Assembly: GCA_042408215.1 (NCBI GenBank)
Contig: JAYFMW010000020.1
Coordinates: 544,001 to 608,000, forward strand
DNA from: Microcoleus sp.
GTDB lineage: Bacteria; Cyanobacteriota; Cyanobacteriia; Cyanobacteriales; Microcoleaceae
Length of the DNA stretch: 64,000 bases
Reading direction: 5' to 3'
In this document: positions 49,673 to 56,889 of the stretch, in pieces
Numbering within the stretch: position 1 is the stretch's first letter
Layout: every line of letters begins with the position of its first letter
Made by a program: the position numbers and the translations under genes
The notes under the pieces: model-generated
Database searches by the model: none
What the model was told of the DNA's origin: nothing
What the model saw: only the letters and a program-made list of their open reading frames with translations

Positions 49673-50914
49673 TCAAGTCGTGTATTCCGCATTAATTTTC
49701 ACATAGTCGTAACTCAAATCGCACCCCCAAGCCTTAGCAAAACCCGCGCCATTTCCAACACTAACCTGAATTAAAACCGTGTCTTCCTTCAAATATTCTC
49801 CCTCCGCCGCCGCTTTCAGATAATTACTCGCAGCAGATTTATCGAAGGGTAAAGGTTGGCCATTTTCCATCATCAAAAAATCTCCCAATTGAATCCGCAA
49901 ATTCTCCTGTTCAAACGGTACGCCCGCACGCCCAGCCGCCGCTGCAATTCTTCCCCAATTCGGATCGCGTCCAAAAATAGCAGCTTTCACCAAAGAAGAA
50001 CCGACAATTGTTTTGGCAATTTTACTCGCAGAAACTTCGTCCGGCGCGCCGCTAACTTGCACTTCAACCAAACAAGTTGCACCTTCGCCGTCGCGGGCGA
50101 TCGCCTTGGCTAAATGCACACAAACTTCTGTTAGCATTGCTTCTAATTTGTCTGCTTCTGGCCCTTTTTCGGTAATTGCGGGTGTGCGAGATTGTCCGTT
50201 TGCTAAAGCAATTAGCGAATCATTGGTACTGGTATCGCCGTCAACAGTAATTTGATTGAAACTTCTGTTAGCTGCACGACTCAGCATTTCTTGCCACAAA
50301 TGTGACGATACTGCTGCATCACAAGTTACAAATGCTAGCATTGTTGCCATATTCGGGTGTATCATTCCCGAACCTTTGCAAATGCCGCCGATACGCACGG
50401 GCCGATCGCCAAACATGGTTTCCAGGGCGATCGTTTTTGGGACTAAATCTGTGGTGCAAATAGCTTTAGCAGCCGCGTCAGAACCAGTTTCTGAAGCCGC
50501 AGCAACTAATGCAGGAATTCCCGCCCTCAACGGTTCCATCTTAATCCGCTGTCCGATTACCCCAGTGGAGGCTAAAAGAATAGATTCTGGAGGAATATTC
50601 AGGGCTTCACCCAACAATTTGGCGCATTCGAGGGCGTCAGCCAAACCTTGAGCGCCGGTGGCGGCATTAGCTTGTCCGGCGTTGCACAAAATGGCTTTAG
50701 CACTTGGTTTGGTTTGCAGCCGAGTGCGGCAGTAGTCCACACAAGCGGCCCGGACAGTGGATGTAGTGAAGACTCCGGCTGCGATCGCGTCTACTTCTGA
50801 CACAATCAAAGTTAAATCCGGCAAGCCTGAAGGCTTTAAACCCGCTGTAATTCCTGATGCTCGATATCCTCTCGGTGCTGTAACTCCACCGCTAATTACT
50901 TGCCAGTCGGACAT
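49673..50914 (-). CDS. argJ: Bifunctional ornithine acetyltransferase / N-acetylglutamate synthase
   Basis: KGSGMIHPNMATML, DGDTSTND, ARDGEGAT, INAEYTT. Confidence 0.98.
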   Translation of the reverse strand: MSDWQVISGGVTAPRGYRASGITAGLKPSGLPDLTLIVSEVDAIAAGVFTTSTVRAACVDYCRTRLQTKPSAKAILCNAGQANAATGAQGLADALECAKLLGEALNIPPESILLASTGVIGQRIKMEPLRAGIPALVAAASETGSDAAAKAICTTDLVPKTIALETMFGDRPVRIGGICKGSGMIHPNMATMLAFVTCDAAVSSHLWQEMLSRAANRSFNQITVDGDTSTNDSLIALANGQSRTPAITEKGPEADKLEAMLTEVCVHLAKAIARDGEGATCLVEVQVSGAPDEVSASKIAKTIVGSSLVKAAIFGRDPNWGRIAAAAGRAGVPFEQENLRIQLGDFLMMENGQPLPFDKSAASNYLKAAAEGEYLKEDTVLIQVSVGNGAGFAKAWGCDLSYDYVKINAEYTT

Positions 50915-51152
50915 GATGACCTCCCTAAAAGCTTTCTATTCTGCTGAAAGGGGGATTATATCATTTTAGATTTTAGATTTTAGATTTTAGATTGTAAATA
51001 TTGTATTTAAGCAACTCAATAAAATTAATCGCGACTTTTTCTTGAGAGATCGAACTCAAGAAGAAGTCGCGACAATTTTGTAACTGGCATGATTAATTTT
51101 TAGCGGGCATTCAACAAAGTAGATTTAACTGTCTCGCCATTGAAAAAACGAG

Positions 51153-51293
51153 TTATTTGCGATCGCCTAGTGCCTGTGCACTCAGATCTAAACCAACTTC
51201 AGCAGCCACGCGGCTTAGTAGAGATTGCTGGCGATTCAGAACTCGGTTGTGGTGGCGCATCATCAGGCTGCGGGCTTGTTCTTGAGCTGACAT
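51153..51293 (-). CDS. Short IF7/GifA paralog (46 aa)
   Basis: Manual translation MSAQEQARSLMMRHHNRVLNRQQSLLSRVAAEVGLDLSAQALGDRK; GGAG RBS. Confidence 0.8.
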   Translation of the reverse strand: MSAQEQARSLMMRHHNRVLNRQQSLLSRVAAEVGLDLSAQALGDRK

Positions 51294-51353
51294 AACTTGT
51301 TTCTCCAAATGTAGGTATTAAGTTTGCGGGCAATTGGGGAAATTGAGCTGCCC

Positions 51354-51548
51354 TTAGCTCATGGCGGCATTGCTGCGATCGTAACTTGCTTGAAAGCTGG
51401 GCTGCGGCTTGCCTTGAATATGACCCCAGTAGTTAGCATCTTCCATACCAACTTCGGCGGCGCTGCGGTTGAGCATAGATTGCTGCCGGTTCTTGACGAG
51501 TTGGTGGTGGCGCATCATCAGAGAGCGAGCTTGGTTTTCGGTACACAT
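51354..51548 (-). CDS. gifA: Glutamine synthetase inactivating factor IF7
   Basis: QARSLMMRHHQLVKNRQQSML.R.AAE.G...W..IQGKPQ.SF...YDRSNA matches IF7 as recalled; GGAGG RBS. Confidence 0.92.
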   Translation of the reverse strand: MCTENQARSLMMRHHQLVKNRQQSMLNRSAAEVGMEDANYWGHIQGKPQPSFQASYDRSNAAMS

Positions 51549-51624
51549 ATTCGGTTCCTCCGTATTCCTTGACTAAGGTTGAGCTGTGTTTCTGTTCCTA
51601 CTATTCAATATAACAGACAATTCT

Positions 51625-51638
51625 GTATCTAAAGCTAC
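51625..51638 (-). promoter_or_regulatory. NtcA binding site in a repressing position upstream of gifA
   Basis: GTA-GCTTTAGA-TAC (GTA-N8-TAC), 12 nt before a TATATT -10-like hexamer. Confidence 0.8.
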
Positions 51639-51675
51639 AGAATCAAATTTTGTAACAAAGCTTTATATTTGCTAG

Positions 51676-51900
51676 AGCTCCCCGAGTAACCCATAATTGG
51701 AGTGAATCGGAATAAATCCCAAGGTTCCAATTAGGGTTCACTTTTTCGACTCCTCTGTAGTCGCTTCCTTCAGCTTGTGGGACTCGCCCAACCAAATAGA
51801 GCGTAGTGAAGTAGGAATCTTTAGGCAGTTTACCCAAGCCTCGTACAATCAAAGTGGAGTCGCTAAACACCGTTCTAGTTTGATTGCACACCTAAAGCAT
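51676..51900 (-). ncRNA. Putative structured omega/guide RNA downstream of the divergent tnpB
   Basis: Nested complementary stems at 51819-25/51891-97, 51842-53/51879-90, 51747-63 and 51688-701/51726-38. Confidence 0.55.
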
Positions 51901-51902
51901 TA

Positions 51903-53201
51903 CTACTCTAGGCTTTTTAGATTAAGCGTAGCCTCTGGGATGTTACGCTTGATTGCTTTTAACGCCACATTACGAGCCGCATTTAAGCCACTGTGAGCTT
52001 TATACCCATCAACCGTTGCTACTAATGCAGCGCCATTTTGATAGCCATCAAATTCAAGTAGAGTTGAAGGGAATTTGCATCCTCTCCAAAGTTGCTCACC
52101 CCACGGGGTAAGGCGGCTTGTATTCATGGGACTAACGCGAGTTGTGAGGATGGCATAATCTTGGTAAGCAATTCGTTTCACTTGTTCATAGATTTTGCCT
52201 TTTAACCAGTAGGCGCGTTTCTGATTTGAACGTCTGGAATATTTACCGCGTTTAGGTTGTAAATTTCCAAGGTGTTCAAAACTAATTACATCAGACCGCC
52301 AATGATTTGCGAACTCAACAAGTTCACGAGATACGGCTCTAGAATATTCAATCTCTCTAGCAGATAGAGAGTCCCATGCTGTTTTAGCGAATCCACGGGA
52401 AATAATCCCTGTTTTGCCCATCAAAATTGCAATCTTTCCTAGCTCCCGCTTCCTACGAGCTACATGACGCGACTGGTTAATGAAATGTCTAGCGACGACC
52501 GTCGTTTCGCCTCTGTCGTTGGTTTCTAAGATTGTGGCAATTACGATGAACTTGTCTAAATCCATGTCAATTCCGCAGGTCCGAAACGTGCCTTTTGCCA
52601 TGATTCCCTTGATCCCGCCCGTTGCAGGGACGTATTTCTCAAGGGGAAAAACTATCCACAAGGAGTCATTCTGAACCTGCACTCTAGGGGAGCCTTTGAC
52701 CCATTCAGTCGGAACGTCAGGACATTGATACTGATGTTTGATCCATTTCCATGAATCGCCTACTAGGATTTTCAGAACAATGGAGAAACCATCATCCTCT
52801 TTCCACATTCCAGAATCGTACTGAGGGTTAAAGTTGAATTTTCTGGGATGGACAGGTGGCTTGTGGTGCTTCATCCTTTTTGGGCGATTCAACCATTTTT
52901 GATAGGTTGAATTCCAACTTTGATAAGCACCAATCGCTTGCCTAATAGCGGCTCTTTTCATCGGAGAAGGAAAGCTTTTTACTCGTGGCTGATTAGCTGT
53001 AAGTAGCTCGTAGTAACGCCAGCCTCCATCTTCTTTGGTCGGGATGCTAATGCCTTGAGGATTTTCTACAATCAGCAAGAAATAGAAATGAACCAGCTCG
53101 TTATAAGCAGCTTTGGTGGGCTGCATATCAAAACCAGAACGAAGCAATTTCGCCTTGACCGACTTGGTTGTAATGGAAAATCCTTTTTGACGTTTTAGCA
53201 T
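51903..53201 (-). CDS. Divergent TnpB-like protein, predicted nuclease-dead
   Basis: RuvC-I GIDMD and RuvC-II FEHL retained; RuvC-III reads HSGLNAARNV (D to G); zinc-finger cysteines absent after NTSR. Confidence 0.8.
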   Translation of the reverse strand: MLKRQKGFSITTKSVKAKLLRSGFDMQPTKAAYNELVHFYFLLIVENPQGISIPTKEDGGWRYYELLTANQPRVKSFPSPMKRAAIRQAIGAYQSWNSTYQKWLNRPKRMKHHKPPVHPRKFNFNPQYDSGMWKEDDGFSIVLKILVGDSWKWIKHQYQCPDVPTEWVKGSPRVQVQNDSLWIVFPLEKYVPATGGIKGIMAKGTFRTCGIDMDLDKFIVIATILETNDRGETTVVARHFINQSRHVARRKRELGKIAILMGKTGIISRGFAKTAWDSLSAREIEYSRAVSRELVEFANHWRSDVISFEHLGNLQPKRGKYSRRSNQKRAYWLKGKIYEQVKRIAYQDYAILTTRVSPMNTSRLTPWGEQLWRGCKFPSTLLEFDGYQNGAALVATVDGYKAHSGLNAARNVALKAIKRNIPEATLNLKSLE

Positions 53202-53294
53202 CTTTCGACCAATGATGTTTATTCAACTACTACGATGACAATGGAATGAAACTAATCTAGAGACTTGATCCATTATACTCCAATATTTTCCTTT

Positions 53295-56200
53295 CTAGTA
53301 ATTAGACTTCGATCGCACTTTTTTCCCTTCCCCCTTCTGACTACCACCGCCCCGCACCAGATGAAAAATCCAGATTTGGAAACCATCCATATAAGTAAAA
53401 ATCACCGGAATCACCACCAAAGTCAACAGCGTAGAAGTCATCAAACCACCAATAACCGCCATCGCCATCGGGCTCCGCACCTGAGAACCGGCGCCAATTC
53501 CCAGGGCGATCGGCATCATTCCAGCGATCATGGCGATCGTCGTCATCAAAATCGGCCGCAAGCGCGCCACCCCCGAATCCAGCGTCGCCTCATACATCGG
53601 CTTACCTTCCTTCTGATTAAGAATCGCGTAATCCACCAACAAAATCGAATTTTTCGTCACAATTCCCATCAGCAACACGATCCCAATCAAAGCGTACAGC
53701 CCCAAAGACTTCTGCCCCACCAGCAATCCCAGCAGCGCGCCCCCAACTGACAAAGGCAGCGCAGCCATAATTGTCACCGGGTGCAGGAAATTCGCAAACA
53801 GCAGCACCAACACAGCATAAATCAACAAAACCGCCGTTCCCAAAGCCCCCGCAAAACCGCTGAACACATCCATCATCACCTTCGCATCTCCCGACGATTC
53901 CTGTTCGACGCCAGGCGGCAGAGGATTCATCGCAGGTAGTTGTTTCACCGCAGCGGAAGCTTCTCCCAAAGTAGTACCGCGCCACAAATTGCCCTCCACA
54001 GAAACTTGGCGAGCTCTGTCATAGCGATCGATCTGAGAAGGCCCGCTACCCAAAGCAATATCAGCCACCGCCCTCAAAGGCACCAAAGTATTATTTTTAC
54101 CCGGTACTTGTAGATTCTTAATTGTTTCGATATCGCTGCGAAACTGCGGTGCCAACATCACATGAATCGGAATTTGTCTATCTGGCAAATCGAACTTAGC
54201 AAGATTCGATTCAATATCTCCGATAGTTGCCAGAGTTGCAGTGCGAGCAATTTGTTGTACAGATACACCCTGATCCGCCGCCCGATGCGGATCGGGTTTA
54301 ACCAGGATTTCTGGCTTCACCAAACTCGCACTAGATTGCACCTCAATCAATCCCGGCACCTGACTCATTTGTTGAGTAAGAGCAAGAGCTGTTTTAGTTA
54401 AAGCAGTAGCATTTTCGCTTTTAAGGACGATCGACATTTGCTTTCTACCCCCCACTCGCCCTTGAGCAAAACTGAGCCGCACACCGGGAACATCCGTGAG
54501 TTTGGGGCGCATTTCCTCTTCAAACTGCTGTTGCTTAATCCGTTTGTCAGCCGGTTTGAGTTTCACATAAAGAGTCCCTGTATTCACACCACTAGCACGG
54601 GCAGTACCCCCACCGGGGCCACCAGAAACTGTCGGAGAACCTTCTGTCTCCAAAACGCTTTCGACTGCTGGATGGACGAGCAACAATTTAGTTGCTTGTT
54701 GTACAGCTAAATCCGTCTGCTGGAGAGTGGAACCGGGAGGAAGTTCAATAGAGACAGTCGAAAGTCCAGTATCATCGCGATCGATAAACCCAGTCGGAAT
54801 ATAAGGTATTAATTTAAAACTGCCGAATAATAAAGCCACAGCCATAATTAGGACGATCGCCCGATGTTTAAGCGACCACATTAAAAGCCGTCGATACTGA
54901 TAGGATAATTGGTCTTTTTTTAACTGTTTCTGATGGTGTCCTTTATCCTTAAACAAATAAGCAGCCATCATCGGAGTCACAGTTCGAGCTACCAGCAGCG
55001 AAAACAAAACCGACGCCGAAACCGTCACCCCAAAAGGTCGAAAAAACTGACCCGGAATTCCCGGCATAAAAGCCACCGGTGCAAATACCGCGACAATCGT
55101 CATAGTAGTAGCAACAACAGCCAAACCAATTTCAGCAGAAGCATCCAAAGAAGCTTGATAGGGAGTTTTCCCCATCCCGACATGGCGTTCGATATTTTCA
55201 ATTTCGACGATCGCATCATCTACCAATACACCCACCACCAGCGCCAGCGCCAACAAAGTCATGCTGTTGAGGGTATAGCCCAAAAGTCGGAGTACAGCAA
55301 AAGTAGGAATTGCCGACAGCGGTAAAGCCACAGAAGCAATCAGAGTTGCCCGCCAATCCCGCAAAAAGATTAAAATAGTAATTACCGCTAAAGCCGCCCC
55401 CAAAAATAAAGCATCCACAGAAGCTTCATAGGAATCTCGGATGTGATCTGCTAGGGTATAAATAAGTTCCAACTTGACATCAGTTGGCAAAGTCTTTTCC
55501 ATTTTTTCCACAGTTTTCCGCACCGCTTCTTCGACAGTAACGAGAGTGCTGCCGGTACTGCGAAGGATAGAAAAAGCCACTACAGGTTTGCCATTAAGTC
55601 GCGCCGCCTGACGCGCCTCTGCATAGCCCTCAGTCACTTCTCCCAAACTAGAAAGAGGAACAAAACCACCTTTGGGCAAAGTAATTTGATAGGTTTTCAA
55701 TTCATCGAGAGTTTTGGCACTACCGAGGGTGCGGACTGTTTGTTCTGAATTGCCAATTTCGGTTCGACCGCCCGGTAAATTGATATTAAAATTGCGAATT
55801 TGGTCATTAACTTGGGTAGCTGTAATGCCAAGACTTTTCAGTTGTTCAGGGTTCAAATCAACTCGAATATCCTTGTCTCTACCTCCGATGCGCTGCACTT
55901 GAGCAACACCTTTGACAGAGAGGAGACTACGGCTGATATTTTGGTCGATCAACTCGCTTAACTGTTCTACGGATTGGCGATCGGAAACCACAGCATAGGA
56001 CATGATGGAACTGCCCGCAAACTCAACCCGCTTGACGACTGGATCGTTGATATCTTGCGGTAGGCCTTGGCGGATTTGGGCGATCGCATTGCGGACATCA
56101 TTCGTAGCGCGATCGCTATTAGTGCCTAGCAGAAAGTTAACCGTAGTATTAGAAGAACCATCATTAACCGTCGAGATAATGTGGTCGATATTACCCAAAC

Positions 56201-56423
56201 CAGCAACAGCATCTTCAACTTTTTTAGTAACTTGAGATTCAAGTTCCGACGGATCTGCCCCCGGTTGGCTAACAGAAATCGAAACAGAAGGAACATCAAT
56301 ATTAGGCGAATCATCAATCCCCAAAACCGGAAAAGATATTAAGCCACCTATTGTCAAGATTAAGAATAAAACAATAGTAGGAACAGGCTGTTTAATCGAC
56401 CAAGCAGAAATATTGAAAGACAT
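53295..56423 (-). CDS. RND efflux permease (AcrB/AcrD/AcrF family)
   Basis: MSFNISAWSIKQP, GVLVDDAIVEIENI, TKNSILLVD, RLRPILMTT. Confidence 0.96.
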   Translation of the reverse strand: MSFNISAWSIKQPVPTIVLFLILTIGGLISFPVLGIDDSPNIDVPSVSISVSQPGADPSELESQVTKKVEDAVAGLGNIDHIISTVNDGSSNTTVNFLLGTNSDRATNDVRNAIAQIRQGLPQDINDPVVKRVEFAGSSIMSYAVVSDRQSVEQLSELIDQNISRSLLSVKGVAQVQRIGGRDKDIRVDLNPEQLKSLGITATQVNDQIRNFNINLPGGRTEIGNSEQTVRTLGSAKTLDELKTYQITLPKGGFVPLSSLGEVTEGYAEARQAARLNGKPVVAFSILRSTGSTLVTVEEAVRKTVEKMEKTLPTDVKLELIYTLADHIRDSYEASVDALFLGAALAVITILIFLRDWRATLIASVALPLSAIPTFAVLRLLGYTLNSMTLLALALVVGVLVDDAIVEIENIERHVGMGKTPYQASLDASAEIGLAVVATTMTIVAVFAPVAFMPGIPGQFFRPFGVTVSASVLFSLLVARTVTPMMAAYLFKDKGHHQKQLKKDQLSYQYRRLLMWSLKHRAIVLIMAVALLFGSFKLIPYIPTGFIDRDDTGLSTVSIELPPGSTLQQTDLAVQQATKLLLVHPAVESVLETEGSPTVSGGPGGGTARASGVNTGTLYVKLKPADKRIKQQQFEEEMRPKLTDVPGVRLSFAQGRVGGRKQMSIVLKSENATALTKTALALTQQMSQVPGLIEVQSSASLVKPEILVKPDPHRAADQGVSVQQIARTATLATIGDIESNLAKFDLPDRQIPIHVMLAPQFRSDIETIKNLQVPGKNNTLVPLRAVADIALGSGPSQIDRYDRARQVSVEGNLWRGTTLGEASAAVKQLPAMNPLPPGVEQESSGDAKVMMDVFSGFAGALGTAVLLIYAVLVLLFANFLHPVTIMAALPLSVGGALLGLLVGQKSLGLYALIGIVLLMGIVTKNSILLVDYAILNQKEGKPMYEATLDSGVARLRPILMTTIAMIAGMMPIALGIGAGSQVRSPMAMAVIGGLMTSTLLTLVVIPVIFTYMDGFQIWIFHLVRGGGSQKGEGKKVRSKSNY

Positions 56424-56889
56424 AATGGGGAATGGGGAATGGGGCATTGGGCATTGGGCATTGGGCATTGGGAATTGGGCATTGGGGATTGGGGATTGAG
56501 AATTGAGAATTGGGAATGGGGAATTTGGCATGGGGCATCTTCGCCGAAAAGCATTGGTTATTTGTTATTAGAAAAACTACTAACAATTACCAATTACCGA
56601 TTACCGATTACCAATTACCAATTACCAATTACCAATTACCAATTACCGATTACCGATTTCCCATTACCATGACTAATGACTAATGACTAATGACTAATGA
56701 CTAATGACTACTGACTACTAACTAATGACTACTGACTACTGACTACTAACTAATGACTACTGACTACTAACTAATGACTACTGACTACTGACTACTGACT
56801 AATGACTACTGACTACTGACTAATGACTACTGACTACTGACTACTGACTAATGACTACTAACTAATGACTACTGACTACTGACTAATGA
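56424..56889. repeat. Long composite STRR tract (GGGCATT, TTACCAA, TGACTAA/TGACTAC)
   Basis: Direct reading; lies between the adaptor and RND genes. Confidence 0.9.

Follow-up and report, generated by a model that had tools for sequence, protein, structure and literature searches.

Between an RND efflux pump gene and the promoter of gifA, the gene for the glutamine synthetase inactivating factor IF7A, the genome of Microcoleus sp. (assembly GCA_042408215.1) carries a tnpA-less, non-autonomous insertion sequence of the IS607 family. The element lies in the 64,000-nucleotide stretch analyzed here (contig JAYFMW010000020.1, positions 544,001 to 608,000; hereafter the window, with position 1 as its first letter). 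It encodes an intact TnpB-like protein in which glycine occupies the position of the third catalytic residue of the RuvC nuclease, normally an aspartate. We are close to certain that this unit is a mobile IS607 element rather than a domesticated regulator. The explanation that best accounts for the whole, to which we assign a probability of about 60%, is a recent IS607 insertion that is incidental to gifA and whose TnpB has a rearranged active site.

Evidence for a recent insertion

The ends of the element, read from its paralogous and orthologous copies, fall at 53307 (GTCTAATTACTAG...) and 51684 (...GGGTTACTC). All copies in the genome share the right end, and three share the left end. An earlier reading made from the letters of the window alone (the sequence-only reading) had bounded the unit by two CTAG tetramers at 51672-75 and 53295-98. 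Both tetramers exist, 9–12 nt off the true ends, and their positions are coincidental.

Close relatives of the host lack the element. We compared the gifA region in 25 other same-genus genomes and searched 18 same-genus genomes, plus 12 that belong to the same order but to other families, for homologs of the protein (E up to 1e-20). In the two same-genus genomes that could be aligned over both flanks, which are also the closest (G008 and G005), the site is empty. Their flanks are 96–98% identical to those of the window, and in place of the element a spacer of ~60 nt, which holds a terminator-like hairpin, joins the 3' end of the pump gene to the region upstream of gifA. The gifA region is present in all 25 genomes, whereas 17 of the 18 searched lack a homolog of the protein; the remaining genome encodes one on a contig other than that of its gifA. 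One of the 12 genomes from other families also encodes a homolog. Across 84 related loci (80 from public genomes and 4 from relatives), gifA was found within the fetched flanks of none.

The host genome contains further, broken copies. A protein search of the genome returned one intact copy and stop-bearing pieces of 53–85% identity on contigs C30, C6, C23 and C28. DNA searches returned five or more further copies, degraded or reduced to a solo 3' end, with 83–96% identity: a near-full copy (C30), the pair on C23 and C28, and three that are partial or consist of a 3' end only (two on C6 and one on C20). In other genomes, pairs of copies are 99.95%, 99.9% and 100% identical over 2.2–2.3 kb and have unrelated flanks, which means that the family transposed recently. 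These comparisons indicate that the window element is itself a recent, strain-specific insertion and that its position next to gifA is incidental.

IS607 affiliation and probable route of insertion

As a fallback, the sequence-only reading had suggested TnpB cargo of a non-IS605 element, and this proved right: the family is IS607. Our homolog search collected 175 proteins, and every one with a named source is cyanobacterial. A genome scan gave 95 relatives, and we retained 80 loci. A serine-recombinase tnpA, whole or as a remnant, adjoins tnpB in the same orientation in 29 of these 80 loci (tblastn); 28 of them are among the 73 with at least 700 nt of upstream sequence. At two loci (L063 and L085), an open reading frame (ORF) of 190–194 aa with a MerR-type helix-turn-helix and a Resolvase domain lies directly upstream of tnpB (PF00239, E 1.5e-18 and 5e-19; PF12728).

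Within the host genome itself, the best TnpA match is inside the C23/C28 copies (58% identity, no stops), where it sits exactly between a 69-bp left end and the tnpB start. The protein of the C23 copy scores 171.5 bits on NF033518, the NCBIfam model for the IS607 family transposase (cutoff 110). The first 69 bp of the window left end match the left end of this tnpA-bearing copy, and the 618-bp stretch that holds its tnpA (C23, between 4546 and 5165) is missing from the window between 53239 and 53238. The window copy is thus a tnpA-less derivative, its left end fused to the tnpA–tnpB spacer at that point.

The junctions suggest how insertion occurs. Left junctions of the window subfamily read G-TC-TAAT in 11 of 11 independent cases, and the right end finishes with TAC-TC. 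At the empty site the sequence is AAG-TC-GGGG, exactly what follows the right end in the window. In the available part of the ISXfa1 study, IS607 crossover uses a matching dinucleotide, there GG, and the TnpB motif comprises the left-flanking base plus this dinucleotide (PMC10711439). Since the left end, right end and empty site share TC in the manner of that scheme, we predict crossover at TC and a TnpB motif of GTC. The flanks of the 11 left junctions share no motif beyond G-TC, so that GTC is only a prediction. The element inserted between the gifA promoter and the pump gene, and the crossover probably took place at the TC of AAG-TC-GGGG.

Four side observations concern this IS607 population. 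The 7.36-Mb genome holds 32 matches to IS607-type serine-recombinase TnpA, many of them without stops, and thus a large and diverse set of IS607 elements. The tnpA-bearing degraded copies (C23:4478-7028 and C28:277378-279933) have identical left flanks and different right ends, and could stem from a segmental duplication that was partial or from a repeat in the assembly; a cognate tnpA looks intact in these copies alone, and tnpB is intact in the window alone. In Phormidium R1S1, a canonical 406-aa TnpB with a zinc finger and the motif DENAAINI (L063:2098-3318) lies directly upstream of a family element, either nested or adjacent. Finally, CGATCGA, which resembles the cyanobacterial HIP1 palindrome, precedes two independent left junctions (window 53308-53316; C30 near 362783) and none of the other nine, which may be chance.

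A structured RNA with a predicted locus-specific guide

The sequence-only reading had described about 220 nt of nested stems after the stop codon, and these belong to a conserved structured RNA supported by covariation. The 277 nt that run from inside the 3' end of the ORF up to the right end have a folding energy of −82.4 kcal/mol (z = −3.25). In an alignment of 28 regions, compensatory changes occur in 29 of the 39 consensus pairs, with 97.1% of cells paired; sliding the partners by 1–3 columns leaves 36–42% paired, and none of 500 shuffles reaches the observed values. Seven covarying helices cover 51907-51748 of the window. After them come an invariant AAGTGAAC, whose GTGAAC occupies 51736-51741, then a 3' hairpin and, at 51684-51688, the terminal TACTC. 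This last hairpin, from GTGAAC to TACTC, appears only in the single-sequence fold, and the right-end alignment gave no consensus for it. No Rfam family matched 50900-53400 with E up to 1. The 3' RNA is a true guide-RNA scaffold.

The scaffold ends at a conserved position, beyond which the sequence changes from locus to locus. TACTC occurs 150–260 nt after the stop in 30 of the 67 full-length homologous loci, and in 27 of these 30 GTGAAC stands ~45–50 nt before it; more distant subfamilies end otherwise, for example in TACAC. Past TACTC every locus has an unrelated flank, so the guide varies with the insertion site. By analogy with the mechanism of IS607 and IS605 TnpBs, as the available part of one study describes it (PMC10711439), 51660..51683 would act as the guide in the window.

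We propose that scaffold RNA read out across the right end takes as its guide whatever flank it meets, as in other TnpB elements. If IS607 and IS605 TnpBs are a fair model, the TnpB–RNA complex would recognize the resealed donor site after excision (predicted GTC followed by the flank) and cut it, and recombination with another copy of the chromosome would restore the element. A search of the host genome for targets of the guide found nothing other than the element's own flank: there is no second site for 16 nt with up to 2 mismatches, or for 20 nt with up to 3, preceded by GTC. One extra match to a 12-mer of the guide is about what chance yields in 14.7 Mb of two-strand sequence.

The sequence-only reading had also credited the unit with its own promoter. 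The TATAAT on which it relied is present, inside the left end, but a promoter scan found no −35 partner for it. Promoter-like sites in the region do not exceed shuffled expectation in that scan (5 found, 3.5 expected).

Fold and active site of the TnpB

The ORF of 432 aa is uninterrupted, as first read. It matches guided_TnpB of NCBIfam (NF040570) at E 4.3e-14 and 52.6 bits, below the cutoff of 100, and a Pfam-A scan of the protein gave no match. Its homologs carry a precomputed label, PF27142. An AlphaFold2 model made from 30 homologs (predicted local distance difference test score, pLDDT, 86.8; predicted template modeling score, pTM, 0.74) gives the protein a TnpB/Cas12f-type fold, with predicted WED and REC domains and a RuvC domain that contains an inserted target-nucleic-acid-binding region. 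The top Foldseek match of the model is AsCas12f (8j3r, E 2.4e-14, TM-score 0.56). ISFba1 TnpB (8iaz, E 5.9e-12) and ISDra2 TnpB (8h1j, E 1.3e-10) are also among its matches, and Fanzor2 and Cas12k (7n3o, E 2.5e-8; 7pla, E 3.5e-7) rank lower.

A profile search against solved chains locates the catalytic residues. FEHL aligns to the RuvC-II glutamate (E309), and AHSGLNAARN aligns to ANADYNAARN of Cas12f, which puts G405 on the RuvC-III aspartate. The canonical D-E-D triad is thus incomplete, in agreement with the sequence-only reading: D212 of RuvC-I and E309 are kept, the third residue is G405, and there is no CxxC pair, whereas most though not all TnpB branches carry a C4 zinc finger between RuvC-II and RuvC-III.

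This arrangement is a property of a clade. We drew full-length members from 67 of the 80 loci and from an exhaustive profile search, in which 83 proteins of at least 380 aa were aligned out of the 150 listed among 771 hits at E up to 1e-3. All 49 rows of the window clade, which is cyanobacterial, have D212, D214, E309 and G405, a hydrophobic or aromatic residue at 406 (L, I, V, Y or F), and no zinc finger. In the relatives that keep D405, which come from Chloroflexota, Bacillota and some cyanobacteria, all 23 rows have D212, N214, E309 and D405 with a variable residue at 406, and all except P0122 have CxxC...CxxC. A small Calothrix-type clade (3 of 3 rows) combines D212, N214, E309, G405 and E406, again with no zinc finger. 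The protein is therefore a member of a compact (about 430–460 aa), zinc-finger-less, cyanobacterial clade of IS607 TnpBs.

The tree gives these changes an order. The 49-row window clade is monophyletic (Shimodaira–Hasegawa-like approximate likelihood ratio test, SH-aLRT, 100), and its sister group unites P0122, which has N214, D405 and no cysteines, with the G405/E406 clade. From this placement, loss of the zinc finger came first and was followed by two separate losses of D405, both accompanied by a new carboxylate nearby. A scan of all 432 positions for clade-specific acids found one loss, at 405, and three gains, at 136, 214 and 226; only 214 falls in the hairpin right after the catalytic D212 in the secondary structure of the model. 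D212 and E309 are themselves invariant over a clade that reaches ~36% identity.

Selection has maintained the protein in this form. The window ORF is intact and 88–90% identical to intact orthologs, and the ratio of nonsynonymous to synonymous substitution rates (dN/dS) is 0.07–0.16 in 14 of 14 homolog pairs, as expected under purifying selection. The loss of both the aspartate and the zinc finger is thus fixed in a deep clade that evolves under purifying selection. As one refutation of its proposal, the sequence-only reading had named recent decay, in which close homologs would keep the aspartate and sit at random loci. The homologs do sit at unrelated loci, but they have not kept the aspartate; with Gly405 fixed across the clade, the change from Asp to Gly is not recent decay.

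Is the nuclease active?

Because D405 was lost together with the appearance of D214, while D212 and E309 stayed unbroken, we favor a relocated carboxylate over a dead site. The third RuvC carboxylate has probably moved from the RuvC-III helix to D214, which would leave the nuclease active; the residue pattern makes this the better supported view, and we hold it with moderate confidence.

Several points weigh against a recent insertion with a rearranged, working nuclease. On the tree N214D and D405G arose together and only once, so the correlation between the two rests on one occurrence. The E406 case is weaker, being one of 13 clade-specific acids in a clade of three rows. In the TnpBs studied in the available part of the TldR paper (TldRs are TnpB-like nuclease-dead repressors), mutation of any single triad residue abolishes cleavage (10.1101/2023.11.30.569447). 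D212 and E309 may be kept for processing the element's own RNA and not for cutting DNA. The proposed placement of D214 in the active site, near D212 and E309, draws on residue conservation and the secondary structure of the model.

Other points concern the element itself. The window copy may no longer be mobile today, since it has no tnpA of its own and the one tnpA of the genome that matches belongs to a copy with 84% identity at the left end. Contigs from three public RNA libraries of two studies cover gifA deeply and parts of tnpB and the scaffold shallowly; they carry no strand or end information and may include DNA carry-over, and we draw no conclusion from them on expression of the element. 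Finally, the left junction in the window is displaced 53 nt upstream of where a simple insertion would put it. AAGTCT occurs at both positions once the element is in place, and loss of the DNA between these 6-nt repeats, either spontaneously or through the recombinase, would yield the observed junction. The ~53 nt of spacer, including the pump terminator, would then have been lost with or after insertion.

The strongest alternative retains the mobile IS607 element and holds that its TnpB is truly nuclease-dead, kept for a role in binding only. We see this as possible, at clearly less than even odds, and are equally tentative about the candidate roles: TnpB could occupy the donor or target site under RNA guidance, control TnpA, or process its own RNA. 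Glycine at the RuvC-III position in 49 of 49 clade members and the absent zinc finger fit this alternative, as does the sensitivity of studied TnpBs to any triad mutation. Purifying selection is neutral as to mechanism, showing that the protein has a function and not which one, and D214 is a candidate active-site residue. Against a dead enzyme stand the invariance of D212 and E309 over so divergent a clade, the new aspartate beside D212 on the very branch that lost D405, and a second loss coupled to glutamate at the next position. A further argument is that the known benefit of TnpB to its transposon reportedly requires a double-strand break, according to the line of work of Meers et al.

In its most general form, this alternative would have the whole clade of TnpBs, carried by actively transposing IS607 elements and under strong purifying selection, truly unable to cut DNA and serving its transposon by RNA-guided binding alone, which we judge unlikely. 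If it were true, a binding-only TnpB might, for example, mark or shield the donor site, or steer or regulate the serine recombinase, as a natural counterpart of Cas12k on a transposon without the Tn7 machinery. The question matters either way: an active clade would provide a new active-site arrangement and a candidate small editor, and an inactive one a non-nucleolytic role for TnpB in transposon biology.

Comparison with known systems

Statements here about published systems cover the available parts of the cited papers. The family resembles described IS607 elements (ISXfa1, PMC10711439; ISFba1 TnpB, 8iaz) in having tnpA upstream in autonomous copies, no terminal inverted repeats, a structured RNA that spans the right end, a guide predicted to come from the flank, a dinucleotide apparently common to left end, right end and target, and common tnpA-less derivatives. 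It differs from them in this dinucleotide, which appears to be TC instead of GG, in its RuvC-III glycine and extra RuvC-I aspartate, and in its lack of a zinc finger. Its sequence is also too divergent for Pfam-A (0 matches) and falls below the NCBIfam TnpB cutoff.

Substitution of a triad residue across a mobile clade has been read as rearrangement before, in the RIIr and RIIIr TnpBs (Altae-Tran et al., PNAS 2023, PMC10691335) and in Ealt TnpBs and Fanzors. The census of Altae-Tran et al. describes clades with rearranged RuvC-II or RuvC-III as well as zinc-finger-less branches, and argues that they are active. Its available part reports relocation of the RuvC-II glutamate and replacement of the RuvC-III aspartate by histidine (RIIIr-4), with no mention there of Asp-to-Gly combined with an aspartate at RuvC-I +2. 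A literature search, which did not extend to the large tables of PMC10691335, found no paper describing a G405/D214 TnpB clade, and the one supplement of that census that was checked had no match for Scytonema, Microcoleus, WA1_14350 or RIIIr. The window clade may already be one of the six RuvC-III branches of the census.

TldRs are the known system closest to the proposal that the sequence-only reading had preferred, a domesticated, RNA-guided DNA-binding repressor with its own promoter that acts on gifA or nitrogen control. They likewise descend from TnpB, miss catalytic residues and have a guide scaffold downstream (Wiegand et al., 10.1101/2023.11.30.569447). As defined in that work, a TldR has a deteriorated RuvC, no tnpA or identifiable ends, a stable new gene association and guides that match promoters. 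TldRs are often truncated at the C terminus to about 300–350 aa and linked to specific host or phage genes, neither of which holds for the window element. The same source warns that calling a TnpB dead on a single residue is often spurious, since the catalytic residue can sit elsewhere, and its initial screen required at least two mutations. The window unit has lost one of the three canonical residues and has a candidate replacement in D214.

A TldR-like repressor of gifA is, in our estimate, highly improbable. It would explain why one triad residue is missing, why this gene is intact when all paralogous copies are broken, and why the element stops 45 nt short of the NtcA-type box of gifA with a guide that equals the DNA just upstream of that promoter. 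However, the site is empty in two relatives with flanks 97–98% identical, the element has several other, decaying copies in the genome, gifA and its promoter persist in 25 of 25 genomes while 17 of the 18 searched lack a homolog, and checking synteny with gifA yielded 0 of 84 loci. The unit also has defined transposon ends and a tnpA association, both lacking in TldRs as published; its guide differs at each locus and has no second genomic target; and the self-match of the guide is preceded by CTC, not by the GTC of the left junctions. It fails every contextual criterion of the TldR definition. More generally, when a TnpB gene is intact, lacks one catalytic residue and adjoins a host gene of interest, empty sites, copies and guide variability need to be checked before it is labeled a domesticated regulator; in the present case each of these checks indicates an ordinary insertion.

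Least probable of all is a decaying pseudogene, a dying copy that recently lost its catalytic aspartate: all other copies in the genome do carry stops or deletions, but all 49 of the 49 clade members, which represent many genera, have Gly405, and the window ORF is intact, 88–90% identical to intact orthologs, with dN/dS of about 0.1.

Two further cyanobacterial systems differ from the recent IS607 insertion with a rearranged TnpB that we favor. Cas12k, from type V-K CRISPR-associated transposons (CASTs), is likewise cyanobacterial and TnpB-derived with an altered RuvC, but it is larger, whereas the window protein sits in a 1.6-kb insertion sequence. Cas12k associates with Tn7-like genes and a CRISPR array. 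Descent from the Cas12k/CAST lineage was considered and dropped, Cas12k being only a lower-ranked structural match. The pro-Fanzor IS607 TnpBs (PMC10711439) share cyanobacterial hosts and association with an IS607 TnpA, and they have DPG in RuvC-I and an alternative glutamate six residues before the zinc finger; the window family has D-M/L-D, the canonical glutamate and no zinc finger.

Two groups of profile-search matches show other departures from the canonical site. Distant matches P0145, P0160, P0161, P0176, P0189, P0193, P0194 and P0201, together with P0220, P0225, P0228, P0234, P0257, P0266 and P0267, keep CxxC and have lost all three RuvC residues (example motifs VAFPDQD, VVPNY and GNTALNTAKNI); by their motifs they look like a truly nuclease-dead lineage of TnpB or Cas12f-like proteins. 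P0152, P0164, P0165, P0172, P0175, P0182 and many others have the canonical D-E-D with DGSG in place of the first CxxC, and look from these residues like another zinc-finger-less branch.

Feature coordinates and neighboring genes

Table 1. Features of the element and its surroundings, in window coordinates.
Feature	Position	Strand	Remarks
Whole mobile element: left end, tnpB, guide-RNA scaffold, right end	51684..53307	-	1624 bp; copies in the genome and in other genomes
Left end and 5' leader	53202..53307	-	terminal GTCTAATTACTAG
TATAAT, −10-like	53272-53277	-	inside the left end
8-nt ATTGGAGT	53277-53284	-	reverse complement in the right end at 51696-51703
tnpB-like ORF, 432 aa, uninterrupted	51903..53201	-	no internal stop
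Conserved structured RNA (omegaRNA/reRNA scaffold)	51684..51907	-	stop codon to right end; covariation
Predicted guide, host flank directly 3' of the right end, GGGGAGCTCTAGCAAATATAAAGC	51660..51683	-	conserved position of the scaffold end
gifA (glutamine synthetase inactivating factor IF7A), host gene	51354..51548	-	NF052599
GTA-N8-TAC palindrome, gifA promoter region	51625..51638		direct sequence reading
RND efflux pump gene	53295..56531	-	last three codons and stop (53295-53297) inside the element left end

The gene downstream of the insertion is gifA, as first read (NF052599, E 1.1e-35, 121.6 bits, cutoff 70). The GTA-N8-TAC palindrome before it, which we take to be the NtcA-box consensus, lies 45 nt from the right end of the element and is also found in the empty-site relatives. 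On the other side, the pump frame of the empty-site relatives continues into other terminal codons, after which comes a CCCCGAC...GTCGGGG hairpin (L030:1380-1540). In the window the insertion changed the last codons of the pump, and most of this terminator-like hairpin is missing, a loss that could allow read-through towards gifA.

A second IF7-like ORF of 51 aa (51153-51308, minus strand) lies in tandem downstream of gifA; its score on NF052599, 62.2 bits, falls short of the cutoff of 70. At every same-genus locus the regions of gifA and of this ORF match each other with 71–81% DNA identity, which means that the tandem pair is old.

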